28,213 nt of DNA from Microcystaceae cyanobacterium (GTDB taxonomy: Bacteria; Cyanobacteriota; Cyanobacteriia; Cyanobacteriales; Microcystaceae): assembly GCA_041746575.1 (NCBI GenBank), contig JBGTGT010000134.1:1-28213 (forward strand), read 5' to 3'. Positions 1,475 to 28,073 of the stretch are shown here, one piece after another; within the stretch, counting starts at the first letter, position 1; each line of letters begins with the position of its first letter. The notes under the pieces were generated by a model. That model was not told the origin of the DNA, ran no database searches, and worked only from the letters and a program-made list of their open reading frames with translations. Made by a program: the position numbers and the translations under genes.

Positions 1475-2749
1475 TTATGGGATCTCTTTTAATCGTTTTC
1501 GCTTAGGAATAATATCAGAGGGAACACCCCAATAAGCGGCTGCTTGTCCCATATTATAAGATAAATAAGCGCGCTCCATTGCGTCTAAGGTTAAAATGTC
1601 TAAGGTACTCGGCTCAATATCAAGCTGATTCAAAATTTCTGCGCCTAATAATTTAGCAAATAAGGGAATTACTGCGTTACCAATTTCTCTGAATCCGTGC
1701 CAGATTGTATTGTGAAACTGAAACCAATCGGGAAACGTATGGAGTCTGGCGGCTTCTCTGACGGTGATACATCTAGGAAGATTATAATGAATCGGACGAG
1801 GAGCAGTATAAGCACCTTTATCACTCGCTGTCCCTGCTCTTAACGTATTACATAAACCCTCAGGTGCAAGTTTTAAGAAACGACTCTTTTTTTCTACTGT
1901 ACCTAGTTCAGTTTCCAAAAATCGCTCAATAGATTTCGGCGTATGTTTTGAACCCAAATGACCATAAACAAATCCATTTGTTTTTCGAGTATGACATAAA
2001 GAATAATAGCCACAGGGATAAATATCAAAATTCAGTCTAAAGCCTTGATAATTTAGTTTTTGACTCTCTATTCCCTGATCTCCATCGGTAAAAGCAGGGA
2101 ATGTTTCTAGATCAGAAATTGCTTCACTGACAGAATTAAATTTTGACAAAGAAGTTGATACACGAGCAAGATTGAAAGTATGAGTCTCCAGAGGATAGCC
2201 TACCTTTTTAACATCCTTTCTTGAGCCAATCATAATCAGTCTTTTGCGTTTTTGGGGCGCACCAAAGAAGGAAGCATCTAAAATCTTAATGGGTTGCTCA
2301 ACCGTATATCCGATCTGATCCAACTTAGCGACTAATTCGGTTAAAAACGATTTATGTTTACCCAAAACTATCCCCGGTACATTTTCAAAGATAAAATATT
2401 TAGGTTGTAAATCTTTAATTATTCTCAGATATTCAAAAACAAGGGAATTTCGAGGATCGTCTCGTTGTCGTTTACCTATCTGTGAGAATCCTTGACAGGG
2501 AGGTCCTCCGGCAATTAAGTCAATTTCGGCTTTAAATCCTTTAGCTTTGATGGCGTTAATTAAATCTTGGCTATCTAACAATCGAATATCTTGACAAATA
2601 CTCACACTATAGGGAAAATTAAGATGATGTACCAGTGCATGAATTGGATCAATTTCGACTGCCGCCGCAATATTAAAACCGGCCGCCTCAAGTCCAAGAG
2701 ACATTCCGCCGCACCCTGCAAACAAATCAATCGCAATGGGTCTATTCAT
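1475..2749 (-). CDS. C5 cytosine DNA methyltransferase, orphan, probably the CGATCG (HIP1-associated; M.Ssp6803I/DmtC-like) enzyme
   Basis: Motifs I DLFAGCGG, IV GGPPCQGFS, VI ENVPG, VIII PQKRKR, IX TVREAARLHTFPD, X IGNAV; N-terminus resembles Synechocystis Slr0214 as recalled; no adjacent endonuclease; start 2749 or 2755. Confidence 0.9.
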   Translation of the reverse strand: MNRPIAIDLFAGCGGMSLGLEAAGFNIAAAVEIDPIHALVHHLNFPYSVSICQDIRLLDSQDLINAIKAKGFKAEIDLIAGGPPCQGFSQIGKRQRDDPRNSLVFEYLRIIKDLQPKYFIFENVPGIVLGKHKSFLTELVAKLDQIGYTVEQPIKILDASFFGAPQKRKRLIMIGSRKDVKKVGYPLETHTFNLARVSTSLSKFNSVSEAISDLETFPAFTDGDQGIESQKLNYQGFRLNFDIYPCGYYSLCHTRKTNGFVYGHLGSKHTPKSIERFLETELGTVEKKSRFLKLAPEGLCNTLRAGTASDKGAYTAPRPIHYNLPRCITVREAARLHTFPDWFQFHNTIWHGFREIGNAVIPLFAKLLGAEILNQLDIEPSTLDILTLDAMERAYLSYNMGQAAAYWGVPSDIIPKRKRLKEIP

Positions 2750-2979
2750 GTACAATCAATCATCGATTATCTGAGCTTATTTATAGATTAACATAAAGCA
2801 GAAAATTGAGTGATCGCCTACAAATTGTCAGTTCAAATTTTGACTTAAACATGATATTTTGTAAACAGAATATCGCCCCCAACGTTAACCCCAAATATCC
2901 ATGAGCGATATATCTTCTTAACCTCTTTCCCTTTTTTAATTTTTTAATGAACGTTATTTTTGCCCAACTCCGAATAAAA

Positions 2980-3537
2980 ATGAGAATTTATAGAAATCGC
3001 TTAATTAAAACCCTAAATGGTCAACAAACGCGTCCCACTTCAGCGAAAGTCCGAGAAGCTTTATTTAATATCTGGCAGGGAGAAATTCTTAACTGCTGTT
3101 GGTTGGATTTGTGCGCCGGAAGTGGCTCGATGTCCGCCGAAGCATTATGCCGTGGGGCAAATCAAGTGGTTGCTATTGAGCAAAATAGTAAAGCCTGTGT
3201 AATTATTCGAGAAAATTTATCTAATATGGCTCAAAATAATCAAAATTATCGAATTTTAAAAGGAAATGTCTTAACCCGCCTTAAACAGTTAGAAGGAGAA
3301 ACCTTTAGTCGTATCTATTTTGATCCGCCCTATGATAGCCCACTTTATGACCCCGTCTTAGCGGTGATCGCTTCTCAAGGTCTTCTATCACTTAACGGAG
3401 AAATCGCCGTAGAACATGACCCGAAAAGAGGGTTATCTGATGATATTCTAGGGTTAGCCCTCTGTCGCTACAAAGTTTATGGTCATACTGCCCTAACGTT
3501 TTATCATCATGCTCAAAAGGAAGACAACGTGGGATAA
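2980..3537 (+). CDS. rsmD: 16S rRNA m2G966 methyltransferase RsmD
   Basis: TRPTSAKVREALFNI, WLDLCAGSGS, YFDPPY, C-terminal YGHTALTFY; start moved to ATG 2980 (MRIY) to match cyanobacterial homologs. Confidence 0.92.
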   Translation: MRIYRNRLIKTLNGQQTRPTSAKVREALFNIWQGEILNCCWLDLCAGSGSMSAEALCRGANQVVAIEQNSKACVIIRENLSNMAQNNQNYRILKGNVLTRLKQLEGETFSRIYFDPPYDSPLYDPVLAVIASQGLLSLNGEIAVEHDPKRGLSDDILGLALCRYKVYGHTALTFYHHAQKEDNVG

Positions 3538-24158: not shown

Positions 24159-24968
24159 ATGTCAAAATTTCAGGGAAAAACAGCCCTTATTACGGGCGCA
24201 TCTCGTGGCATTGGTCAAGCGATCGCGTTTGAATTAGCCCAACAAGGAATCCGTCGTCTTATTTTGGTAGCAAGAGACCAAAACCGTTTGAATCAAGTAG
24301 CGGCAGATTTGGCTCCTTTATCGGTCGATGTCGTTGTTCTGCCCTTAGATTTAACCGATTTTAAGACCGTTGCCAGTCAACTCAATCAGGTATGGCGAGA
24401 TCAAGGTCCAATTGATATTCTCGTCAATTGCGCCGGGGTGGCCTATCAAGCTCCCTTTCTGCAAAGTAAGCTGAATCAGGTCTATGACGAAATTTCCCTA
24501 AATTTACTGGGAATGTACACGGTTACTCGTCTAATTGCCCGACGCATGGCTACCCGTCGTCAAGGAACAATTGTTAACGTTTCCAGCTTAATGGGGAAAG
24601 TCGCCGCCCCCACCATGGCTACCTATTCAGCGACAAAATTTGCCATTTTAGGCTTTACACAAGCGTTAAGAGGAGAATTAGCTCCTTATAATGTTCAGGT
24701 TGTCTCGTTGCTTCCCTCTTTAACCGATACGGATATGGGAAAAAGCGTTCAAGCCTTCCGTTGGGTTCGCACGATGACCCCCCGTCACGTTGCTCAAGCA
24801 TTAAGCAAGGGACTGAGTCATAACGCATCCGAAATCGTGGTGGGTTGGCAAAGTCGTCTGGCAATTTGGGGACAAAAGCTCGTTCCTTGGTTGGTGGAGA
24901 AATTCGTTGCTTGGGCTTCTCCGTTAAAGCCTATGTCTTTAGATTCCGCAAAACGAGCGACTACCTAG
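24159..24968 (+). CDS. Short-chain dehydrogenase/reductase
   Basis: TGASRGIG, NCAG, NVSS, YSATK; GGAGG RBS. Confidence 0.94.
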   Translation: MSKFQGKTALITGASRGIGQAIAFELAQQGIRRLILVARDQNRLNQVAADLAPLSVDVVVLPLDLTDFKTVASQLNQVWRDQGPIDILVNCAGVAYQAPFLQSKLNQVYDEISLNLLGMYTVTRLIARRMATRRQGTIVNVSSLMGKVAAPTMATYSATKFAILGFTQALRGELAPYNVQVVSLLPSLTDTDMGKSVQAFRWVRTMTPRHVAQALSKGLSHNASEIVVGWQSRLAIWGQKLVPWLVEKFVAWASPLKPMSLDSAKRATT

Positions 24969-25027: not shown

Positions 25028-25366
25028 TTAGCTTTCTAAGCTACCGACACTAACCGGAACTAAATCACCGTGAATCGTTAAAGCTAACAGCATTTTGTCA
25101 TCTTGTTGAATTAATTTGCCCGTTAAGACACAACTCTCATCCTTGCGAGCCGTCGCCTCAATTGTAGCGCGAATGTCAGCAGGGGAAAATTGAGGACGAT
25201 AATCCCCCGATTTTTGCTGAACGTAATTCCAAAGAATATCTCGAATCAAGGCTTGATATCCTTGGGTTCCTGCCAGCTTTTTCAACTTATCTTTCAAAGA
25301 TTTTTCTAAACGAATGCTAGTAACCTCCATTTCGGTGGTTGGCTTACGAGTGAGTGTCCGCATCAT
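25028..25366 (-). CDS. trcR: Ribbon-helix-helix repressor, TrcR (All0854)-like
   Basis: RHH-like MEVTSIRLEKSLKDKLKKLA...YQALIRDILWNYV; divergent from HNH and alr0857-like genes, as recalled for Anabaena PCC 7120 all0854/alr0856/alr0857; GGAG RBS. Confidence 0.78.
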   Translation of the reverse strand: MMRTLTRKPTTEMEVTSIRLEKSLKDKLKKLAGTQGYQALIRDILWNYVQQKSGDYRPQFSPADIRATIEATARKDESCVLTGKLIQQDDKMLLALTIHGDLVPVSVGSLES

Positions 25367-25387
25367 GATTTTTTCTCCAAAAAGAAG

Positions 25388-25416
25388 TAGACAAAATAAT
25401 ACTACCGGTGTAATAT
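25388..25416 (+). promoter_or_regulatory. Sigma70 promoter overlapped by a palindromic TrcR-type operator
   Basis: TAGACA (25388-93)-17 nt-TAATAT (25411-16); inverted repeat ATACTAC-CGGT-GTAATAT (25399-25416, one mismatch). Confidence 0.7.
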
Positions 25417-25446
25417 TAGAAAAGCGTTTAATGATAGATTACTTCT

Positions 25447-25474
25447 ATTTTACTTCAACGATGATACGTTTCAA
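25447..25474 (-). promoter_or_regulatory. Candidate trcR promoter
   Basis: Minus strand TTGAAA-16 nt-TAAAAT. Confidence 0.45.
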
Positions 25475-25748
25475 CCCCCTTATGAAATTTATTTCTCACT
25501 TTTGTCCATTGAGTGGACCAGAGGGAGGAGTTTGTCGATTTTATTTAGGGTTAGCGAACAGAAATTGTGTTGAAGGATTATCAGAAGTGTCCTTTATTAT
25601 TGATTTCTATCGAGATAGTCAGTGGATGACAGGGAAGTCCATGGAGATAGCCCTCCCTACATCTCTCATCCTCGTCGGCGGGAGGTACAGGTTCAAACCC
25701 ACTGTACCAATAACATAAGCTTAAATTTGATTTAAATTGGCTCATGAC

Positions 25749-25777
25749 CCGCTTCTTATCTTGAAAGCGGTTTTTTT
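25749..25777 (+). terminator. Intrinsic terminator or attenuator upstream of the HNH gene
   Basis: CCGCTT-cttatcttga-AAGCGG followed by T7. Confidence 0.75.
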
Positions 25778-25803
25778 ATGGCAATTTTGCTGAGGTGGTT
25801 TTT

Positions 25804-26322
25804 GTGAAACAGCCAATTGACCTTTTTCAACCCCTAATTACGGTTTTTTTCCACAATTATTTGCCCTTAAGTCGGGTGATTTTACGGCGCGGCATTTTGC
25901 TGTTAGTAACCGGAAAAGCTGAACCTCTAGATTTTAATTGCTCTGTAGAGTGGGAAATTCATTCTGCTTATTATATTTTGATTGTTTTTAGCCAAATTCG
26001 TTTATCTTATTCCTCTTCTGAGCAAATATGGCAATTTCCGTCCGTGAAGCGTCGAGAAGTGCTAAGTCGGGACAAATATCGCTGTCAATACTGTGGTAGT
26101 CCCCATCGGTTAACCCTAGATCAAGTGATTTCTCGCTCTGAAGGCGGAAAACAGACTTGGGACAATGTGGTAGTAGCTTGTGCAGACTGTAACGGAAGTC
26201 AAGGGGATCCTACCCCGCAGCAAGAGGGAATGAAGCTAAAAACAGCACTTAAAGCTCCAATTAATCCTTGTCTTGCCTTTGCCGAACAGTTTTGGCAATT
26301 TTCATCTATTGACGGTGTTTAG
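25804..26322 (+). CDS. HNH endonuclease family protein (Alr0856-like, McrA-type) with substituted catalytic His
   Basis: RREVLSRDKYRCQYCG...LTLDQVISRSEGG...WDNVVVACADCN; GAGG upstream of GTG 25804 (alternative start 25795). Confidence 0.85.
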   Translation: MKQPIDLFQPLITVFFHNYLPLSRVILRRGILLLVTGKAEPLDFNCSVEWEIHSAYYILIVFSQIRLSYSSSEQIWQFPSVKRREVLSRDKYRCQYCGSPHRLTLDQVISRSEGGKQTWDNVVVACADCNGSQGDPTPQQEGMKLKTALKAPINPCLAFAEQFWQFSSIDGV

Positions 26323-26340
26323 CTAGAGGAGAGAACCTGA

Positions 26341-26730
26341 ATGTTAAAATTAACTTATACGGAAACAGGATTGTCTTTGGAAATCTTGGAACAACCATTA
26401 GAAATTTGGGTTAATACTTGGGTTTTATTAACTCTACGGTCCGGGACTGCGCTTTGGGTTGAACCCACCACTGCAACCTTTATTTTACCTATCGATTTGC
26501 CCCATATAGGCGAGTTACTAAATATTGTCCATGAAGAAATTGAAACAAGTCTTGAACTCTATCTCGGTGATGAAGAAGGAATTGAGGTCAATTTAGACGG
26601 AACGTGGTTATCCTCGAATGCAAATGCAGAAGAAGGGGTTTTTGTCTGTGGATTTAGCGATCGCACAGAAGCCTGTCTATACCGATTATGGCAAGCCTCA
26701 GAGCACTCTGCTTCGGTTTTAAATGAATAA
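26341..26730 (+). CDS. Alr0857-family hypothetical protein
   Basis: MLKLTYTE..LE.L...LE.WV...LxLRxG....EPTTATF.LP.DLP...GTW...EEGVFV...DRTE..LYRLWQ pattern, as recalled; GAGGAG RBS. Confidence 0.75.
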   Translation: MLKLTYTETGLSLEILEQPLEIWVNTWVLLTLRSGTALWVEPTTATFILPIDLPHIGELLNIVHEEIETSLELYLGDEEGIEVNLDGTWLSSNANAEEGVFVCGFSDRTEACLYRLWQASEHSASVLNE

Positions 26731-26739
26731 GAAAGTTTA

Positions 26740-26765
26740 AGGGGCAATCTGCCTCTTTTTCTTTT
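26740..26765 (+). terminator. Terminator after the alr0857-like gene
   Basis: AGGGGCA-atc-TGCCTCT followed by T-rich tract. Confidence 0.5.
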
Positions 26766-26905
26766 GTACGAACAAGATTTTAACCCTTAAAGATGGCAAT
26801 TTTCAAAGCGTTGATTGGGAAAATCTGATCAGATCATTGAGTTAAAGGATATGGGCAAAGTAAAGAAGCGAGCATTTATCAGTAATTTGACCATTTTTCT
26901 AACCA
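26761..26905 (+). pseudogene. DUF29 pseudogene fragment
   Basis: LYEQDFN / frameshift / LKDGNFQSVDWENLI / 5-bp GATCA duplication / IELKDMGKVKKRAFISNLTIFL. Confidence 0.75.
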
Positions 26906-27365: not shown

Positions 27366-28073
27366 TTAACCACCGAAGACAACTGCGTCGGGAATTTCGT
27401 AACGTTCCTTACCAATACGAATCATAAAGAGATCCCCTTCTTTTGATGCGCTGAACTCACCAGGATCTGCTTGACTGACATCCGCCCCGATCGCCTTACC
27501 ATTCTTAAAGAAGATCACGCGACTACGGCCATCAGATTTCTTGACGGTTACATTCGCCGTACCATTGCCTTGACGAGTAACACCAAACGGACAAGGTCCT
27601 GTCGGTTGTCCATTTCCCATCGAACAGGGGATATTACCTGTAGCATGATAGTTTGTGCCAGGGACTTTGGCATCGCCTTGAGTGTTGCCAACAACAGTGA
27701 TTTTCAGGCGGTAGTTAGCGACTTCATTGTCACGTGCAGCATTCCGATACAGAAAAACTTGTATTAAATAATCGCCTGTGGAGGGAAGCGTCCCTTCAAA
27801 AACGTTGTCGTTCTGTTCCCCAATTGCCATCGCCGCGTCCTTGCCGGGAATTTTGCCGGGGGCGAAGATATTGAAATAGTTGCTGCCGTTATCGCTATTT
27901 AAGCTAACAGCCATCGTTTGTCCAGCATTGGCTCGGATCAGGTAATGAACCGTTTGTTCTCCCTTGATCTTGCCTTGAATAGTTGTGCCTGATGTGCCTG
28001 ATTGAAATTGCACCCTTTCCTTGCGAACTTCGCTGAGGGCAGGAGTCGGCAGGGTGATAGGGGTGGTAATTAG
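27366..28073 (-). pseudogene. PliG-like (g-type lysozyme inhibitor) two-domain exported protein, 5' end removed by IS701 insertion
   Basis: VQF..G.....GKIKG....Y...A.AGQ...LP.TGDY...V...RNAAR......Y.L.I matches the PliG pattern; upstream in-frame LITTPITLPTPALS-EVRK looks like a signal-peptide remnant ending at the IS. Confidence 0.65.

Follow-up and report, generated by a model that had tools for sequence, protein, structure and literature searches.

The stretch of DNA analysed here (the window, 28,213 nt; positions 1 to 28,213 of contig JBGTGT010000134.1, GenBank assembly GCA_041746575.1, Microcystaceae cyanobacterium) carries near its 3′ end a small gene for a ribbon-helix-helix (RHH) repressor, TrcR. 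Divergent from it lies a transcription unit made up of a promoter, a leader with a long open reading frame (ORF), an intrinsic terminator, an HNH gene, a 129-aa gene and a second terminator (Table 1). This is the cyanobacterial trcR/asr0855-alr0856-alr0857 locus, and both the locus and its first layer of control have already been published for Anabaena sp. PCC 7120, in which trcR (all0854) lies divergent from asr0855-alr0856-alr0857 (Wang et al. 2023, PMC10272220). The subject of this report is the leader, in which a well conserved, previously undescribed candidate attenuator can be recognized from comparison of sequences.

Table 1. Features of the trcR locus, numbered from the first nucleotide of the window
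Feature	Position	Strand	Remarks
trcR ortholog (RHH repressor)	25028..25366	-	probable start at the second ATG, 25363, giving 111 aa
Operon promoter	25388..25416	+	-35 TAGACA, 17-nt spacer, -10 TAATAT
TrcR operator over promoter	25399-25416	+	core TGTAATAT at 25409-25416
Leader ORF, asr0855-like	25461..25718	+	85 aa; ATG 25461, stop 25716-25718
Antiterminator strand A	25677..25682	+	within leader ORF; pairs with 25748-25753
Hairpin P1	25684..25708	+	7 bp; last leader codons
Hairpin P2	25714..25746	+	between leader stop and terminator; sequence variable, folding enriched
Intrinsic terminator	25749..25777	+	stem-loop 25749-25770 and run of seven U
alr0856-like HNH gene	25804..26322	+	172 aa from GTG 25804; ORF open from 25795; Pfam HNH, E 8.7e-11
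alr0857-family gene	26341..26730	+	129 aa; NCBIfam NF045647, 138.7 bits against a cut-off of 75
Terminator-like hairpin and U-rich tail, operon end	26739..26767	+	hairpin at 26739-26757

The trcR locus and its repressor

In Anabaena, deletion of trcR raises asr0855 9.2-fold, alr0856 7.2-fold and alr0857 8.5-fold, chloramphenicol is listed as raising asr0855 and alr0857, and TrcR, which represses the promoter region, declines under the same treatment (PMC10272220). In its accessible sections that paper treats the three genes solely as TrcR targets and describes no terminator, antiterminator or leader function. The window shares with Anabaena the gene order, the divergent promoter, the operator motif, the length and key residues of TrcR, the length of the leader ORF and the alr0857 family. 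The window genome differs from Anabaena in its decayed HNH gene and in two further components that were not found: no tRNA array was detected in the 99.8%-complete assembly, where the listed tRNA genes number at most two per contig and where arrays can be left unassembled, and rtcB had no match in the same assembly. Literature searches on asr0855 and alr0855-0857 returned nothing beyond the TrcR paper and gene lists.

Read from its second ATG, the window trcR gene is 336 nt long, equal to the length listed for all0854, and its product carries Leu44 and Ala72, matching the sites altered in the published TrcR mutants (PMC10272220). The Pfam RHH_1 match is weak (E 0.059, below the cut-off); full-length matches are 62-86% identical, and a match was found in 31 of 41 genomes. 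The operator overlaps the -10 box, agrees with the published TrcR motif at 13 of 18 positions when read from the sequence (motif from PMC10272220), and is conserved in relatives. Promoter-like sites in the region numbered 7 against 6.2 expected, which is not above chance. A genome-wide scan with the operator pattern gave 11 matches; it was run without a control and was set aside.

For comparison, 106 loci, including repeats of some genomes, were fetched around alr0857 homologs. The order trcR-HNH-alr0857 seen in the window was found in 88 of these loci, and 9 had trcR without the HNH gene. Ninety-three distinct loci were kept for analysis of the leader, after removal of three that were too short, five with a low score for the conserved leader motif (L014, L015, L024, L025 and L052) and five duplicates. 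The initial annotation of the window, made from the letters alone, had described this layout, a TrcR-like repressor, an operator-overlapped promoter, a terminator at the end of the leader, a gene of the Alr0857 family and a terminator at the operon end; all of these are real and the layout matches the published Anabaena locus. Its reading of the unit as one responding to translation stress likewise agrees with the Anabaena counterparts, which rise 7-9-fold without TrcR and, in the case of asr0855 and alr0857, with chloramphenicol (PMC10272220).

Reading frame and RNA structure of the leader

In 91 of the 93 loci the frame that carries the conserved leader motif had no stop over 180 nt or more upstream, compared with 0 and 2 for the other frames, and the chance of such an open frame is about 0.016 per locus. 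When the start was chosen without regard to frame, by taking whichever ATG or GTG came first within 28-50 nt downstream of the -10 box, it proved to be in frame in 79 of the 85 loci having one, with 24 different lengths; in the window two more ATGs, at 25431 and 25482, share the frame of the ORF. In 77 of the 93 loci the stop comes 12 codons past the motif, and the 78 stops at the usual position are made up of TAA (48), TAG (25) and TGA (5). Five further loci stop 5-7 codons past the motif, still beyond the antiterminator strand (strand A, Table 1). In L010 and L073, which are the exceptions among the 93, and in L124, a long ORF crosses strand A in another frame, and a long ORF runs over the motif in every examined locus with a true motif.

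The encoded peptide drifts. It varies from 69 to 115 aa (median 80 codons); 13 columns reach a conservation of at least 60%, and the tail accounts for 7 of these; and dN/dS (nonsynonymous to synonymous substitution rates) summed over 18 pairs was 0.69 for the leader compared with 0.12 for HNH and 0.10 for Alr0857; the value for TrcR, 0.19, was inflated by the odd pair L042/L044, a locus starting at a contig end, and was set aside. The Ser codon of the motif is AGC in 88 of 88 cases and the Gly codon GGG in 89 of 91, so that the motif codons are fixed at synonymous sites, which points to constraint at the level of RNA. Amino-acid and arrest-peptide attenuators are typified by trpL and TnaC. In the leader peptide no enriched residue, conserved sensing codons or stall peptide could be found, and reading the SGRYR...VP tail as an arrest peptide was ruled out by its varying frame and length. 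In several lineages the C-terminal part of the peptide is truncated or read in a different frame. An internal start behind a GGAG in the 5′ hairpin was also considered and rejected by eye, its ATG not being conserved. The leader is an ORF with a conserved frame whose peptide appears to matter little.

In Nostoc sp. T09 the leader ORF is annotated as an 82-aa hypothetical protein (WP_086689049.1), and asr0855 is 83 aa long; equating the window leader with asr0855 rests on position and length. The leader persists in loci from which the HNH gene has been lost (L009, L011, L017, L114, L115, L120 and L129).

At the level of RNA, the window leader folds better than its shuffles (z -3.5), and across loci folding is also seen in the 5′ part of the leader (median z -2.2). 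The intrinsic terminator at the end of the leader is absent from the list of the consensus terminator scan. Strand A is near-invariant; it is a copy of the terminator 3′ arm and is complementary to the 5′ arm. Its second position is C in 91 of 91 loci, including those, 12 in all, in which the terminator 3′ arm has T at that position. When the nascent RNA was folded without the 3′ arm, strand A paired with the 5′ arm in 91 of 93 loci, in 72 of them together with P1. Under a stricter cut the 5′ arm was sequestered in 89 of 93 loci compared with 45 of 465 shuffles, and masking strand A as a ribosome would left it sequestered in only 4 of 93. P2 was more stable than its own shuffles in 85 of 93 loci.

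Covariation was assessed on an alignment of 59 of the 93 loci. The terminator with P1 gave 23 cells with compensatory change, a value reached by none of 500 shuffles, and the antiterminator with P1 gave 14, reached by 4 of 500. Given 45 full leaders that ended short of the 3′ arm, RNAalifold returned the antiterminator helix as the sole consensus helix; a conserved global leader fold was not detected in that set. An exact pattern describing the element matched 31 of 251 genomes; the ten matches that were fetched all lie between trcR and the operon, and a second match in G093 lies inside a helicase ORF. The leader is thus predicted to hold a terminator and an antiterminator that are mutually exclusive.

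Candidate ribosome-coupled attenuation and its alternatives

These observations can be joined in a ribosome-coupled attenuator layered on TrcR repression, which we regard as the best explanation and to which we give about an even chance. The first lock would be TrcR, which represses the divergent promoter and falls under translation stress, as shown in Anabaena and as we infer for the window. In the second, the 5′ part of the transcript would be a long leader ORF translated for timing and not for its peptide. Strand A would pair with the terminator 5′ arm and close a three-way junction around P1 and P2, which could fold before the terminator 3′ arm is synthesised. A ribosome keeping pace would cover strand A and the junction, the more stable terminator would form and transcription would stop; with a ribosome lagging or stalled upstream, the junction would form and RNA polymerase would read into the HNH gene and alr0857. 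That a translation-linked switch of some kind exists is probable; that it exists and works in the stated direction, a lagging ribosome giving read-through, is about as likely as not. The TrcR study does not settle by what means translation stress is perceived (PMC10272220). If the attenuator is real, a leader that reads the progress of the ribosome would be a second sensor beside trcR, and a peptide-independent timer would bear on the coupling of ribosome and polymerase in cyanobacteria.

Several observations weigh against this reading or blunt its evidence. A Shine-Dalgarno-like word precedes the leader start in only 3 of 79 loci, and in nucleotide alignments the indels that are multiples of three numbered 21 of 48 in the leader ORF and 5 of 48 in the linker and flank. 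The helix between strand A and the terminator rests mostly on invariance, and the variable outer pairs of the antiterminator do not exceed shuffled partners (220 compared with 210.4 ± 6.3; 155 of 2000 as high). At equilibrium in full-length RNA the terminator is favoured in all but 4 of 92 loci, so the switch must be kinetic; the gap between terminator and antiterminator has a median of 8.2 kcal/mol, and in the window, where it is -1.3, the two states are near equal (-24.8 and -23.5 kcal/mol). With the mask placed at the usual stop the 5′ arm stays sequestered in 83 of 93 loci, a result that makes the direction uncertain and that comes from a mask which ignores sterics. Ribosome-polymerase coupling in cyanobacteria is predicted to be possibly loose. 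The loci are kin and not independent, so that the counts overstate significance. Finally, in the Anabaena RNA-seq (PMC10272220) the values for wild type and trcR mutant are 23 and 215 for asr0855, 97 and 701 for alr0856, and 47 and 397 for alr0857; since asr0855 lies below the downstream genes, strong default termination is weakened as an assumption, with the values taken as listed and with the limit that short RNAs can be lost.

The closest tested case is bmrB-bmrCD of Bacillus subtilis, a ribosome-mediated transcription attenuator; the proposal there is that slowing of the ribosome by antibiotics lets a weaker antiterminator form (Reilman et al. 2014, PMC4191407). Likenesses to the present leader are a leader ORF with a GTG start, translated in bmrB, an antiterminator of lower stability, additional control of the promoter by a repressor and induction by ribosome-targeting stress. 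In bmrB, however, the leader ORF itself contains the terminator and a drug pump is produced, whereas the window-type leader has a longer ORF (median 80 codons) that ends about 30 nt before the terminator, inside the three-way junction, and its output is an HNH protein and Alr0857. Without translation bmrB gives less read-through, a warning that the direction of the switch cannot be read from geometry. The E. coli toiL-topAI-yjhQ system is alike in that an upstream ORF senses general translation stress, but in place of a switch at an intrinsic terminator it uses occlusion of a ribosome-binding site together with termination by Rho (Baniulyte and Wade 2025, PMC12121999). A literature search joining cyanobacteria, transcription attenuation, leader peptide, antiterminator and ribosome found nothing.

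The switch could also follow the opposite logic, which we consider unlikely: a ribosome at the leader stop would melt P1 and free more of strand A for a longer antiterminator, untranslated RNA would terminate, and read-through would need completed translation or a stall at the leader end. Masking at the stop does let the antiterminator win in 11 of 92 loci in full-length RNA, compared with 4 of 92 unmasked, the position of the stop and the preceding Val-Pro are conserved (Pro in 81 of 93), and blocked translation of the bmrB leader lowers read-through (PMC4191407). Several lineages, however, stop 3-7 codons past the motif without Val-Pro, which would leave the terminating ribosome on strand A, and the Val-Pro codons are accounted for by their pairing in P1. 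It is unlikely, too, that asr0855 is an ordinary fast-evolving small protein, the hairpin being a constitutive leaky terminator that sets stoichiometry and strand A tuning the leak. Annotation as a protein, the 13 conserved columns, a dN/dS below 1 and the similar change of all three genes without TrcR in Anabaena (PMC10272220) speak for such a protein; the length range of 69-115 aa, the changes of C-terminal frame and the fixation of conserved codons at synonymous sites speak against it.

Two further alternatives assign the leader RNA itself a role. In one, which seems improbable, the terminated leader RNA would partner the PLMP-HNH protein Alr0856, as omega-RNA does IscB and IsrB, either in a feedback loop or in an RNA-protein nuclease that has been domesticated. 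In its favour, the PLMP domains of IsrB and IscB align with the N-terminal domain of an intact homolog that was modelled (see below), the PLMP domain of IsrB binds the 3′ tandem hairpins of an omega-RNA encoded just upstream of its gene (PMC9581776), and the leader shows folding in its 5′ part (median z -2.2). A Z near 5 may nevertheless be a common arrangement, the leader has neither an Rfam match nor a conserved global fold and is kept in loci that lost HNH, a paralog with a similar N-terminus has no noted operator or leader upstream, and the open frame would need a separate explanation. The other is the proposal of the initial annotation that a leader of about 350 nt gives a non-coding RNA, abundant and resembling tRNA, which the two downstream proteins may bind or process; it now appears very improbable. 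The leader is indeed folded and ends in a terminator, as described there, and P1 of the window has a T-loop-like word; the P1 loop is not conserved, and the leader holds an ORF of conserved frame that persists without HNH. ARAGORN detected no tRNA in the leader region, Rfam gave no match (four chance-level hits in one search), and neither a cloverleaf nor a conserved T-arm was found in the leader by ARAGORN, Rfam, comparison of P1 loops or consensus folding. Nor is asr0855 abundant in the published RNA-seq, where it does not exceed the downstream genes (PMC10272220). The association of HNH genes with tRNA arrays, also brought in by the initial annotation, concerns in the literature all8564, a different gene from alr0856.

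The HNH and Alr0857 proteins and neighbouring features

The HNH protein of the window reads Gln in place of the catalytic His (26122-26124) and keeps the Zn-binding Cys and the conserved Asn residues. The His of the Asp-His pair of an active beta-beta-alpha-metal nuclease is thus missing from this copy, which had been described at the outset as a His-less HNH. The description is true of the window and not of the family: among 83 distinct full-length copies the catalytic column holds His in 82 and Gln in the window alone. The window protein departs at 20 of 87 conserved columns, compared with a median of 1 in the other copies, and the figures for its neighbours are 4 of 62 (TrcR) and 3 of 38 (Alr0857). 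On these comparisons the missing His is local decay and not a family trait.

Remnants of alr0856 of about 60-80 aa were seen in L049, L053, L055, L057, L089 and L092 (at about 2800-3000 or the equivalent) and in L083 and L128, with seven loci having remnants of 60-66 aa; leader, terminator and alr0857 are intact in all eight loci named. Such repeated remnants and losses indicate that the HNH gene is dispensable and decays repeatedly, and its decay in the window genome makes Alr0857 the likely working output there. A second decaying copy was noted in Nostoc (L093:2415-2984), with 23 departures at conserved columns and the His kept. The window genome also keeps an intact 165-aa HNH paralog (G000:C123:68376-68873), 36% identical and with the Asp-His pair and a similar N-terminus, upstream of which neither operator nor leader was noted; this paralog may stand in for the decayed gene.

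An intact homolog of the HNH protein was modelled with a mean predicted local distance difference test score (pLDDT) of 81 and a predicted template modelling score (pTM) of 0.55. Its HNH domain came closest to those of compact Cas9 proteins (9k32, Z 9.6, root mean square deviation (rmsd) 2.6, 77 residues aligned), and residues 10-75 aligned to the PLMP domains of IsrB and two IscBs with Z 5.1-5.5 and rmsd 2.1-2.7 over 45-51 residues; the best of these was IsrB 8dmb (Z 5.5, rmsd 2.7, 51 aa), followed by IscB 9k2z (Z 5.2) and 9k30 (Z 5.1). No PLMP or RRXRR match was found at the sequence level in Alr0856-like proteins. The modelled protein would combine a PLMP-like N-terminus with HNH in the manner of IshB, whose layout is PLMP plus HNH in about 180 aa (PMC10734217, PMC11610941). 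This remains a lead only, because the Z values are modest, a sequence-level match is lacking and the leader survives loss of the HNH gene. Likeness to the IshB/IscB/IsrB (OMEGA) proteins would extend to the size of about 172-180 aa, the PLMP-like N-terminal fold with HNH and no RuvC, and the position of the gene immediately behind a structured RNA that has 3′ hairpins (PMC9581776). Unlike OMEGA systems, alr0856-like genes sit in a fixed chromosomal neighbourhood under a host repressor and their products have no literal PLMP motif; Rfam gave no omega-RNA or HEARO match, and the RNA upstream is an ORF. A PLMP-like domain would tie a host stress gene to the lineage of IscB and Cas9.

The alr0857 family was present in 64 of 251 genomes drawn from the phylum. 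No function for Alr0856 or Alr0857 was found in the literature, in agreement with the initial annotation. The structure model of Alr0857 was confident (pLDDT 86) and had no match among solved structures: no PDB match was found by sequence and no Foldseek match at E 0.001, and the best VIA Z was 3.8, which does not show a new fold. Searches with PADLOC and PHROGs were uninformative on this protein. The Alr0857 domain was also seen C-terminal to a PIN-like domain in P0120 (E 1.5e-4), to TRADD-N and pentapeptide repeats in P0118, and to a membrane-anchored region in P0194. In the Atlas, Alr0857 lies near clusters partly labelled WapI (PF24716; carried by 16% of one cluster and 48% of another, with scores of 0.92 and 0.90), which is a lead only. 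The fusions and the WapI neighbourhood hint that Alr0857 could be a nuclease-associated adaptor or inhibitor. A joint reading, which we hold to be a long shot, would have a ribosome-pace timer of 70-115 codons, dependent on no special peptide and ending in the three-way-junction antiterminator, gate a PLMP-HNH protein of the IshB kind that has been domesticated; its PLMP domain would bind the hairpins of this leader, either for feedback or in an RNA-protein nuclease serving in translation stress, with Alr0857 as its adaptor or inhibitor.

Second copies of alr0857 without trcR, HNH or the leader motif occur in some genomes (L107, L108, L110 and L111). Within the genus of the window, neither the conserved operator nor the leader motif is present next to trcR in L015 and L134, and in G001 the matches to trcR and alr0857 are interrupted by a stop, which suggests loss of the module in this genus. 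L135 (G039) has trcR with its operator and a leader-like ORF up to the SGR motif, with no HNH or alr0857 in the available stretch; it would be either a remnant or a leader with a different output.

Elsewhere in the window, a short-chain dehydrogenase gene (24159-24968, +) converges on trcR; it has no match in the other 25 loci compared and is for that reason not taken as a member of the module. A 215-aa ORF downstream of the operon (27366-28013, -) has a secreted, beta-rich look and no Pfam or NCBIfam match at E 0.1. At 1475-2755 (-) the window encodes a probable DNA cytosine methyltransferase, judged by its motifs.

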